Shown here piece by piece: positions 21,001 through 24,000 of a stretch of DNA of 52,839 nucleotides. The stretch lies in IMG/VR virus record IMGVR_UViG_2880372215_000003; one strand, given 5' to 3'. The DNA comes from a virus (taxonomy: Duplodnaviria > Heunggongvirae > Uroviricota > Caudoviricetes). Made by a program: the position numbers. Each line of letters opens with the position of its first letter. The stretch's first letter is position 1.

Positions 21001-24000
21001 TTGTTCTGCGGGGCCGGTTTTTCGATGACATTTTCTTTCCTCTGGTGACAAGCTATATGGCGAGGATTTTACATGGCTGTGCTTCGTACGTTACCGGGCA
21101 GAATCAAAACTCTGAACACCCGGCGGATAAATGTCCTGAGGGGGGAACAGCGTCGTGTCAGTGGCAGTGCCCGGGTTTCCCTCAAACGTCGTATCTGGCG
21201 GAGGGATGCCGGACACTGTTGTCTCTGTAGACGCGTGGTTGACCTTTGTGACAGTGAACTCGATCACCGCATTGCACTTCAGTTCGGTGGTGGTAATGAG
21301 GAGACGAACCTCTGGACCCTCTGTACTGAATGCCATCGCCAGAAGTCAGCGAGTGAAGCGGCGAGTGGTATGCCTGATCCGACGTTGCCTGAGCTTCCTG
21401 ATGGCACGCTCAGGGCCGACGGAATCACTGGCCTGTGACCAGACCCGGGGGGATCATCCGGCGAAAAAAAACGATCGCCCTGGACACCGCGCCCCCTCTC
21501 ACGCAGAGAAAAAATTCCCGTTTCAGGGCAGTTAACATGTTAACTGGCTGCCCGGGCATTTTTGCGGTTTTTATCTTTATTATTCAGTTTGTTGTGCGGA
21601 AAAAATGTTAACAGGCTTTTTCAGCAAATGTTAACCAGGCAGCAGTTAACATTTGCGGCATGAGACGCCGGGAAAAATGGGCTGAACCATACCCGGCTGA
21701 GTGCGTTCTGGACCCGGGAGGAGGCTGTGCTGACAACGCAAAAACGAAAATTTGCGCTGGCGCTCATGTCCGGGAAAAACAAAACAGCGTCAGCCCTTGC
21801 CGCCGGTTATTCGGCGAAGACAGCCAGGGTTAAAGGCTCGCAGCTGGCAAAAGATCCGGAGGTGCTTGCGTTTATAGCCCGTAAACAGTGCGAGACGGTG
21901 GAGGTGGATGAGGTTCCTGTTTATCGGCAGAAAAAATCAGAGCCGGAGGATAAACCCCGTCGCCGTGAGGCGGCTGCAATACCACAGCCGGACGAAACAA
22001 ATCCGGAGATGCCACCGCCCGTGGTGATATCTCCTGGTATTGAGTATATGGAGGACGGTCTTCCCGATCCGGTGAAAGCGATGGGGCGTCTTCTGGTGGA
22101 GAACATTAATACCGACCCCAGGCTGGCGCTGGATGCGGCTTATAAGCTGGCGCAGTTCACGCACCACAAAAAAGGGGATGCCGGTAAAAAATCGGCAAAA
22201 GGTGACGCGGCGAAAAAAGCGGCTAACCGTTTTGCGGTGCCACCACCACCCCGCCTGGTGGTGAATAATGATAATGAGGGCAACGGATGATACCTGTGTG
22301 GAGCACGGCCTGCCCGGACTGGGCAGAGCGCCTGAAAAAGGGGCTGTCGATTATTCCGGCTCCGATTTATCCGGAGCAGGCCGCACATGCCCTGGCGATT
22401 TTTAAACAACTGCGGATTGTGGATGCACCGGGCAGCCCGACGTTCGGGGAGTCCTGCGCACAGTGGGTGTTTGACCTGGTGGCGGCCCTGTTTGGCTCCT
22501 ACGATGCGCAGACCGGTGTACGCCATATCAAGGAAGTTTTTATCCTTATCCCCAAGAAAAACAGCAAGTCCACGCTGGCTGCCGGGATCATGATGACGGC
22601 GCTGTTACTGAACTGGCGGCAGGCGGCGGGCTACACCATTCTGGCCCCGACCGTGGAGGTGGCGGCTAACGCCTTCAACCCTGCCAGGGATATGGTACGA
22701 CGGGACGATGATCTGGATGACCTCTGTCAGGTGCAGACACATATCCGGACCATCACCCACAGGGTGACGGACACCACCCTGAAGGTGGTGGCTGCCGATC
22801 CGAATACGGTATCCGGTATCAAGTCCGTGGGGACGCTGATTGATGAACTGTGGTTATTTGGCAAGCAGTACAAAGCGGAGGACATGTTACGTGAAGCCAT
22901 AGGCGGCCTTGCCTCCCGCCCGGAAGGGTTTGTGGTGTATACGACCACCCAGTCGAATGAGCCGCCAGCCGGGGTGTTCAGACAGAAACTGCAGTACGCC
23001 CGGGATGTCCGTGACGGCAAAATTCATGATCCGCACTTTCTGCCGGTGATTTTTGAGCATCCTCCTGAAATGGTGGAAAGCGGGGCTCACCTGCTGATGG
23101 AAAACCTCGCCATGGTTAACCCGAATCTCGGTTATTCGGTGGATGAGGCTTTTCTGTACCGGGAGTACCGTAAAGCCCGGGAGGCTGGTGAGGAAGCATT
23201 TCGTGGCTTCATGTCAAAACATGCCAATGTGGAAATTGGTCTTGCCCTGCGTTCTGACCGCTGGGCGGGTGCGGATTTCTGGGAGCAGCAGGGCAGGCGC
23301 GTCAGCCTGGACGATATCCTGCAGCGCGCTGATGTGGTGACGGTGGGGATTGACGGCGGGGGCCTGGATGATCTGCTGGGAATGTACGTGATTGGCCGTG
23401 ACAGGGAAACCCGCGAATGGCTGGGCTGGGGCCATGCCTGGGCGCATGAAACCGCGGTGGTCCGACGGAAGAGCGAGGCGTCCCGGTTTCAGGATCTTGT
23501 TGCCTGTGGAGATATGACCATTGTCCGGCGTGTCGGGGATGACACGGCGGAAGTGGCGGAATATGTGCGTCGCATTCATGAGGCTGAGTTACTGGACCAT
23601 ATCGGTATTGACCCGTCAGGGGTGGGGCAGATTCTGGATTCACTGGCGGAAGCCGGGATCCCCGACGGAATTGTGGTGGGGATAAGCCAGGGCTGGAAAC
23701 TGGGCGGGGCCATTAAAACCACCGAGCGCAAACTGGCTGAAGGGGTGCTGGTGCATGGTGACCAGCCCCTGATGGCCTGGTGTGTCGGCAATGCCCGGGT
23801 GGAGCCTAAAGGTAACGCCATTCTTATCACCAAACAGGCCAGTGGACGGGGAAAAATTGACCCGCTGATGGCGCTGTTCAATGCGGTCTCCCTGATGTCC
23901 CTTAACCCGGAACCGAAAAAGAAAGAATATGCGGTTTTTTTCATATAACCCTGTTCACACTGTAACCATCATGAACCGCTGCGGCGGTTTTTTTATTTTC

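Follow-up and report, generated by a model that had tools for sequence, protein, structure and literature searches.

Five copies of an oriented repeat, ATGTTAAC, occupy positions 21529-21656 of IMG/VR virus record IMGVR_UViG_2880372215_000003 (52,839 nucleotides, called here in its entirety the window), and we consider it likely that they form a cosB-like packaging-specificity array to which the phage's own small terminase, TerS, binds by its helix-turn-helix domains. As a long-tailed lambdoid prophage, the window belongs to the Shiga toxin (Stx) phage group; its segment 21000-24000 is 95-99.9% identical to the long-tailed Stx-type lambdoid phages Stx2a_WGPS6, 2851, 1717, BP-4795, and YYZ-2008. 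As in a cosB-type element, the repeats lie beside the predicted cut on the terS side, occur in multiple conserved copies beyond chance, and are matched to the TerS domain in comparisons among relatives.

An earlier note on this DNA had described a dense, mixed-orientation cluster of GTTAAC motifs between the HNH endonuclease gene and terS (Table 1). The cluster is real and lies where the note put it, with five copies at 21531, 21539, 21607, 21630, and 21645, all inside 120 bp, the first two within the run GTTAACATGTTAAC (21531-21544). Mixed orientation, as a description, does not fit the hexamer, which is itself a palindrome, and fits only the longer shared unit: all five copies have the oriented core ATGTTAAC, roughly AAATGTTAAC-N-R-G, in the order -, +, +, +, -. 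Across the whole window we counted 18 GTTAAC copies, compared to 9.0 ± 3.0 in shuffles. The maximum per 120-bp span was three, reached once, in 1000 dinucleotide-preserving shuffles of the window, and two when the 288-bp intergenic region was shuffled 20000 times; such a cluster comes to ~2e-10 per 120-bp span by a Poisson estimate based on the background rate. A weight matrix made from the five sites scored them at 18.9-21.8 bits, with a best score of 14.6 bits elsewhere in the window, and its scan of the window revealed no strong motif copy upstream of the cut or anywhere else. Centre-to-centre spacings of the sites are 8, 68, 23, and 15 bp, and the array runs from 32 bp (start of the first site) to 159 bp (end of the last) past the predicted cut at 21497/21498. 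A two-sided, pac-like layout was rejected, as motif copies were found only on the terS side of the cut. There is also a second, smaller grouping at 4104-4124 (GTTAACCAGTTAACAATTAAC), with paired GTTAAC at 4104 and 4112 in a 97-aa open reading frame (ORF) of the early region (3860-4153, minus strand). This pair is without the extended ATGTTAAC context and was set aside as not of the array type.

The position of the cut comes from relatives with known ends. PhageTerm analysis of induced Lys8385Vzw particles indicated cos packaging with the 3' cohesive end CGCCCCCCCT (PMC7946995). The record of this phage, which is ~96% identical to the window in this region, ends in ...GGACACCGCCCCCCCT (terminal CGCCCCCCCT) and starts with CTCACGCAGAG, i.e., CTCACGCAGAGAAAAAATTCCCG. 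The window homologue of CGCCCCCCCT is CGCGCCCCCT, 34 bp upstream of the first GTTAAC, and the top-strand cut is accordingly predicted, by homology, between 21497 and 21498. The linear record of Burkholderia phage Bcep176 has the 10-nt CGCACGTTCC at both ends, in the position homologous to 21488-21497 of the window; in terS orientation it reads CGCACGTTCC, then CTCACGCGCAGAAAATTTTCCC, then terS, and its TerS is 37% identical to the window's. These ends support the cut position independently. No cos feature is annotated in the BP-4795, 2851, and Stx2a_WGPS6 records, and a Genome Research paper on lambdoid phages deals with 5' cos sites of the lambda type, which do not bear on the ends considered here.

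The earlier note had placed the cos and terminase-binding sites of an HNH-TerS-TerL phage here and had proposed mapping virion ends as the check. By homology, the relatives' ends map to 21488-21497 and not elsewhere, so that ends with a ~10-nt 3' overhang fall in the HNH-terS intergenic region, and the assignment to a cos region is supported by the published Lys8385Vzw ends. Because the cut maps 34 bp upstream of the first GTTAAC, however, the cluster is not itself the cut site. With this refinement the proposal is supported, in that the cos region adjoins the cluster, and its terminase-binding part draws on comparison. Homology places the cluster on the terS side of the cut, at the end of the genome where packaging begins, which is the location of cosB in lambda. 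Should our reading of the array as a TerS target prove wrong, these phages would still have their mapped cos region here.

Relatives came from a TerS protein search, a one-genome-per-species scan, and a scan of viral contigs for the cos core. The 55 distinct close IMG/VR relatives were uninformative about conservation because 21520-21726 is nearly invariant at such distance. Two phages have the same TerS helix but diverged DNA (L176 and L179), and each has one extra motif copy. Compared with L176, the window's hexamers were identical at 30 of 30 positions and the rest of 21498-21712 at 119 of 185 (64%; Fisher p = 6e-6). For L179, the corresponding values were 29 of 30 and 69% (p = 5e-4).

Motif type also followed the TerS helix. 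Phages with TerS ..KTARVKGSQ had four to six ATGTTAAC sites and no ATGTTTA sites, and in phages with TerS ..KSARCKGSQ (L177, L178, L304, and the truncated L175) every site was ATGTTTAY in the proper orientation, in the forms TATAAACATGTTTATA (palindrome), AAATGTTTATA (single site), and AAATGTTTACAGGGCAGCGGTAAACATTT (inverted pair). TerS identity to the window's protein is 75-76% in L177 and L178 and 88% in L304. The same KSARCKGSQ/ATGTTTAY pattern recurred at 47-48% TerS identity in L305 and L306, which have an unrelated spacer and at least six TGTTTATA(CCC) copies. Across phages and satellites, three motif types pair with three helix variants (KTARVKGS with ATGTTAAC, KSARCKGS with ATGTTTAY, and KTARVKGW with AAAGTTACAC); unbiased 7-mer counts gave the same motifs, and the cross-table of helix against repeat had no exceptions. 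TerL did not predict repeat type: the L177 TerL is 96% identical, yet the repeats differ, and the L176 TerL is 83.5% identical and the repeats are the same. The comparison thus shows selective conservation of the repeats, and a joint change of their sequence and of residues 32, 35, and 38 in the predicted TerS recognition helix.

The strongest single argument that TerS would read the repeats comes from satellites. Small islands (L169-L174 and L311) encode the TerS variants P0063 and P0053 (helix ..KTARVKGWQ) along with an integrase, a primase, a capsid homologue, and a regulator of the AlpA or helix-turn-helix kind, but neither TerL nor HNH. These islands, found in 220 of 5426 complete E. coli genomes, retain the G-run and the cut-site core (GGACACCGCCCCCCGTCTCAT or GGACACCGCGCCCCCTCTCATGCAGAG) and have AAAGTTACAC repeats downstream. 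L169 has two tandem copies (AAAAGTTACAC twice), and in L172 ~6 copies, an inverted pair among them, follow a T-rich spacer that closely resembles the window's. To a helper's cutting machinery, an island would present the cut site unchanged; TerS is the sole packaging protein that the island brings, and its cos-proximal DNA departs only in the repeat array, which argues for reading of the repeats by TerS. Given the common cut-site core, prophages of the window's type could plausibly serve the islands as helpers. Gene content noted for the loci L169, L172, and L311 (Table 1) also includes YlcI/YnfO and Icd-like proteins, with a TerS of 162 aa and a capsid homologue of 307 aa.

The Pfam Terminase_2 match of the window's TerS (34.3 bits vs. 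a cut-off of 26.1) covers only profile positions 1-56 of 141, and the TerS-family profile matches the DNA-binding domain of SF6 G1P over residues 13-57 (4zc3, 2cmp, and 3zqp; E 4e-4 to 2e-3). In the AlphaFold model, the predicted local distance difference test score (pLDDT) is >90 for residues 1-50, with helices at 4-14, 19-25, 33-41, and 44-55, and Foldseek matched 4zc3 with a template modelling (TM) score of 0.84 and a root-mean-square deviation of 1.6 Å over 56 columns. As modelled, residues 1-55 are a helix-turn-helix DNA-binding domain of the SF6 type. T32, V35, and S38, the residues that vary between repeat classes, lie at the N-cap and on one face of predicted helix 33-41; its counterpart in the SF6 helix-turn-helix, by alignment, is the second helix, and it would be the recognition helix. 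The monomer model shows disorder over residues 56-113 and then three helices, and similarity to full-length 3zqq is poor (TM 0.37). This middle part (21892-22065 in the window) is Pro/Glu-rich and varies in length among relatives, with a 15-residue duplication in P0001 and no such segment in P0036; it connects the DNA-binding domain with the C-terminal part, both of them conserved, and satellite TerS proteins retain the latter too. The order of genes, with HNH immediately upstream of terS-terL and cos between them, is that of an HK97-like HNH-cos module. The small terminase is not of the HK97 gp1 type, being a Terminase_2 protein with an SF6-like helix-turn-helix, and therefore the organization is shared with HK97 but the TerS family is not.

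We propose that TerS, presumably an oligomer like its SF6/SPP1 relative, would bind the palindrome of sites 1 and 2 at ~+40 from the cut and, through several helix-turn-helix domains, also the three distal sites at ~+112, +135, and +150. The T-rich spacer between proximal and distal sites may be a bendable segment, and its T-tracts would let the DNA bend or wrap. TerL and the HNH protein would thereby be positioned on the conserved cos core, the cut would leave the 10-nt 3' overhang at 21488-21497, and packaging would then proceed rightwards into terS. We infer the physical binding of the repeats by TerS, as well as its stoichiometry, the DNA bending, the order of events, and any role of the post-cut A-tract.

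Several points weigh against this proposal. The helix-repeat covariation comes from a sample of about four or five independent lineages with tightly linked DNA, and the repeats and the terS 5' end are <250 bp apart and co-inherited, so the association could be partly linkage. Our literature search found no binding experiment for the window's TerS or its close relatives. The spacings show no simple helical phasing, and sites 4 and 5 can also fold into a strong hairpin. A lambda-like site for integration host factor (IHF) between the repeats was considered and rejected, as only T-tracts are present there; in 21439-21726 there was no match to the IHF consensus WATCAANNNNTTR with one mismatch or fewer, and the nearest match, at 21102, is inside the HNH gene. 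In short-type relatives, described below, the right half of the palindrome is coding sequence for Met-Leu-Thr, and coding constraint contributes to its conservation there. Lastly, in HK97, which has been studied more than any other HNH-dependent cos phage, TerS uses one site with an A-tract, and the window's conserved A-tract (~+9 to +17 after the cut) could be the real TerS contact or an additional one.

The G-run and the A-tract segment CTCACGCAGAGAAAAAATTCCCG (21498-21520) do not vary with TerS type and are kept from E. coli to Bcep176, and in satellites. Both may contact TerL or HNH, or be the counterpart of the HK97 TerS site (+15 to +29), and the G-run may belong to the cos region on the side packaged last.

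The palindrome of sites 1 and 2 is the sole array element found in all relatives, and its surroundings suggest where the motif came from. GGACACCGCGCCCCCTCTCACGCACAGAAAAAATTCCC is almost unchanged in elements from Kluyvera, Atlantibacter, Erwinia, Serratia, Enterobacter, Kosakonia, Pantoea, Citrobacter, and Buttiauxella, in which TerS is just 33-48% identical to the window's. In short-type relatives, terS starts ~40 nt past the cut, as ...GGAGGgtGTAAACATGTTAACAGCGCAAAAGCG (L086-L104) or, in Citrobacter, GTTAACGTGTTAAC, and ATGTTAAC corresponds to Met-Leu-Thr. From this alignment, the ATG in the window's palindrome (21537-21539) is homologous to the ancestral, short-type terS start codon. The E. 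coli lineage has ~190 extra bp (21547-21712) between this relic start and the present one, consisting of the T-rich spacer and three further motif copies, and its terS now starts at GTG 21727 (GTG CTG ACA ACG, MLTT). Short-type relatives likewise keep the palindrome's left half, which is non-coding, and Leu-Thr is always TTA AC- in relatives that keep the Met-Leu-Thr start (L104 has GTG TTT ACG). The palindrome therefore appears to be constrained as DNA and not by coding alone. In the window, the relic ATG opens a 24-codon ORF, MLTGCPGIFAVFIFIIQFVVRKKC (21537-21611), whose stop is the TAA in the third GTTAAC, and the ribosome-binding site before it has decayed from GGAGG in relatives to AGGG.

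This ancestry could also mean that the repeats are evolutionary debris, i.e., functionless duplications of the ancestral terS 5' end (ATG TTA ACn) left by the ~190-bp insertion between start codons. The homology of the 21537 ATG to the short-type start (...GTAAACATGTTAACAGCG) fits such an origin, as does the identity of the motif with the first eight coding bases of short-type terS genes, and the present start, GTGCTGACAACG, is a diverged copy of the motif. We still consider debris quite improbable, as it accounts for where the motif came from but leaves the inversions, the selective conservation, and the concerted switches unexplained. Tandem duplication of a gene start does not give inverted copies, of which there are two among the five, hexamers are kept at 30 of 30 positions against 64% in the surrounding DNA, and the non-coding left half of the palindrome is kept in short-type relatives. 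Moreover, all copies switched together to ATGTTTAY in other lineages, and satellites have a different repeat in the same place. The last two observations also bear on whether HpaI sites have merely come together here by chance or for reasons of restriction, with no packaging role, which we regard as having next to no chance of being correct. GTTAAC is the recognition sequence of HpaI, but relatives have ATGTTTAY or GTTACAC instead, which are not HpaI sites, the conserved unit is oriented and longer than the hexamer, and shuffles never yielded the cluster.

A different protein could bind the repeats, such as the DUF3950 (YlcI/YnfO) product, a host nucleoid protein, or a late-gene regulator, and so control terS expression or the accessibility of cos. 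The DUF3950 gene sits beside HNH on the opposite strand in most relatives, ribbon-helix-helix-like proteins bind repeated or inverted sites, and the palindrome overlaps the terS start codon in short-type relatives, a typical operator position. However, DUF3950 residues 7-30 (RRTT[T/I]RNIRFPNxMIExxNIAL), by which a protein of this kind would touch DNA, are almost the same in ATGTTAAC phages and in the ATGTTTAY phage L177, the N-terminal regions of L177 and L179 differ at one position (Q24R), and L178 has the same array as L177 yet lacks a DUF3950 gene next to HNH. For a host factor, phages and satellites that share a host would have no need of distinct motifs, and repeat type tracks the TerS helix instead. 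We therefore see another binder as unlikely; an argument from the absence of DUF3950 in satellites was dropped, as island L311 carries a YlcI/YnfO gene. The repeats might otherwise act as nucleic-acid structure, with mRNA hairpins or DNA cruciforms that adjust the translation of terS, the stability of the transcript, or the cleavage of cos and with compensatory changes in the arms. The inverted repeat of sites 4 and 5 (arms GCAAATGTTAAC and GTTAACATTTGC, gap 9 nt) gives a 12-bp stem (DNA fold -11 kcal/mol, z = -5.5) that is kept with changed sequence in L177 (z = -3.7), and 21498-21740 folded as RNA has z = -2.25. Yet any inverted repeat of a protein site folds in silico, and site 3 and the tandem AAAAGTTACAC copies of L169 follow the same motif rule without a nearby partner. 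Site number and spacing also vary (as in L176 and L179, with their extra site), and the stem is not followed by a terminator-like T-run. The promoter/terminator scan found no terminator in 21439-21726, and a search of Rfam found no known RNA family at E ≤ 1 in 21000-22300, leaving a structural role improbable in our view. The sole promoter-like hit of the scan is on the minus strand and is made of the motif itself (TTAACA-18-TAACAT).

Table 1. Features of the cos region and satellite loci (window coordinates unless a locus is named).
Feature	Position	Strand	Basis or remark
DUF3950 (YlcI/YnfO) gene	20804-21031	-	N-terminus ribbon-helix-helix-like
HNH endonuclease gene	21073-21438	+	Pfam HNH 26.9 bits, cut-off 21.4; annotated HNH endonuclease in related phage records
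G-run	21447-21452		~35 nt upstream of cut; alignments of relatives
Conserved cos core GGACACCGCGCCCCCTCTCACGCAGAGAAAAAATTCCCG	21482-21520		Single occurrence in window; almost constant in relatives at TerS identities of just 33-48%
Predicted cosN, 10-nt 3' cohesive end CGCGCCCCCT	21488-21497		Homology to Lys8385Vzw and Bcep176 ends
Sites 1 and 2, perfect 18-bp palindrome, halves CAGTTAACA and TGTTAACTG	21529-21546		Inverted repeat search; centre ~+40 from cut
T-tract-rich spacer	21547-21602		T-runs at 21559, 21568, 21576, 21588; conserved core CTTTATTATTCA inside
Site 3, AAATGTTAACAG	21603-21614	+	AAATGTTAAC at 21603-21612
Site 4, GCAAATGTTAACCA	21624-21637	+	Left arm of 12-nt perfect inverted repeat
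Site 5, GCAAATGTTAACTG on minus strand	21643-21656	-	Right arm of same inverted repeat as site 4
terS, small terminase gene, GTG start	21727-22290	+	Pfam Terminase_2 34.3 bits
terL, large terminase gene	22287-23948	+	Pfam TerL_ATPase, TerL_nuclease
Protease-capsid fusion gene	24012-25949	+	Flanking gene
Satellite locus L169	2370-2500		
Satellite locus L172	1730-2017		
Satellite locus L311	2247-10706		E. coli O157:H7 Z1814, between cspD and clpS

The HNH gene is at the right end of the virion genome, and its product is the presumed cos cleavage cofactor. The 247 bp of 21480-21726 were present in 1276 of 5426 complete E. coli genomes, in up to seven places per genome, and none of the eight hits listed had an annotated feature beneath it. 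On the chromosome of O157:H7 PV15-279, six places have the same cos and repeat region. Co-resident prophages with one common recognition array could compete for, or share, terminase. Outside the cos region, the late region (20451-43055) alone matches Stx2a_WGPS6, at ~92-98% identity, and the early region (1-20450) has no match to that phage except for 365 bp over tRNA genes; the window is therefore a mosaic relative and not Stx2a_WGPS6 itself. Three tRNA genes (Met-CAT, Arg-TCG, and Arg-TCT) occupy 14210-14459, and a stretch of 12 G comes after them at 14540-14551.

More tentatively, the repeats and TerS residues 32, 35, and 38 may constitute a naturally varying recognition code, in which phages would switch specificity by concerted change and satellites with private TerS and repeats would keep the helper's cut site and hijack TerL and HNH of this very common type of prophage. 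As part of this idea, which we find attractive but somewhat doubtful, the multi-site array would derive from expansion of one ancestral palindrome overlapping the terS start. If true, it would name the missing helpers of phage-inducible chromosomal islands (PICIs) of Gram-negative bacteria that encode TerS. We found no description of these repeats in the literature we searched, and an earlier one may exist. The mechanism of DNA recognition by small terminases has been called "elusive and controversial" in review (PMC9611059), and the only solved TerS-DNA complex is that of HK97, a different kind of protein from the window's TerS (PMC11331095). The window offers a tractable natural system, with a defined cut site, five clear sites, and a TerS with an SF6-type helix-turn-helix, and the natural variants ATGTTAAC, ATGTTTAY, and GTTACAC point to three candidate specificity residues. 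Such clean specificity variants, together with satellites that have the same cut site and different repeats, add to the interest. Stx-converting phages belong to this phage type, and roughly one complete E. coli genome in four has the region. Identical arrays in co-resident prophages and private arrays in satellites bear on which DNA is packaged and transferred between pathogenic strains.

Among known systems, SPP1 and SF6 G1P have a homologous DNA-binding domain (4zc3, 2cmp, and 3zqp). SPP1 TerS contacts multiple points flanking the initial TerL cut and induces significant DNA bending (PMC9611059). However, these are headful (pac) Bacillus phages with contacts on both sides of the cut, whereas the window's repeats are on one side of a precise cos cut, and the proteins differ after the DNA-binding domain, where the window's model has a long disordered linker (56-113). 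HK97 is alike in having an HNH-dependent cos with a 10-nt 3' overhang, HNH at one genome end, and terS-terL at the other, and the A-tract in its TerS site just downstream of the cut resembles the conserved A-tract right after the window's cut. HK97 TerS threads DNA through its ring and recognizes a single 15-bp site at +15 to +29, which includes the A-tract, reading it by an N-arm and C-helix substructure (PMC11331095). This differs from the SF6-type helix-turn-helix and the five sites over ~130 bp of the window.

The islands resemble the packaging redirection of Staphylococcus aureus pathogenicity islands (SaPIs), by SaPI TerS, and of PICIs, by differences in cos and cosB (PMC6092414), in that they carry their own TerS and their own repeats beside a helper-type cut site. 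The characterized E. coli PICIs (EcCICFT073) have no terS and use lambda or phi80 as helpers, and in the same study, inducing prophages brought about no transfer of those E. coli PICIs that do have a TerS gene (PMC6092414). By contrast with the former, the islands described here do encode TerS.

In function and layout, the array would be closest to lambda cosB, which is laid out as R3, I1, R2, and R1 and bound by the small terminase gpNu1, with I1 being an IHF site. The two have no similarity in DNA sequence, and gpNu1 is a winged-helix protein unrelated to the window's Terminase_2/SF6-like TerS. Lambda also has a 12-nt 5' overhang and no HNH protein, compared to the 10-nt 3' overhang and adjacent HNH gene of the window, and it needs I1, whereas the window is without an IHF consensus over 21439-21726. 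Still, lambda cosB has three TerS sites (PMC6092414), and in both systems repeated small-terminase sites, putative in the window, lie in mixed orientation beside cosN on the side packaged first, extending to ~+150. In both, one site is proximal and the others distal, with a bendable segment, again putative in the window, between, and as cosB sets packaging specificity in lambda, so the array probably would in the window.

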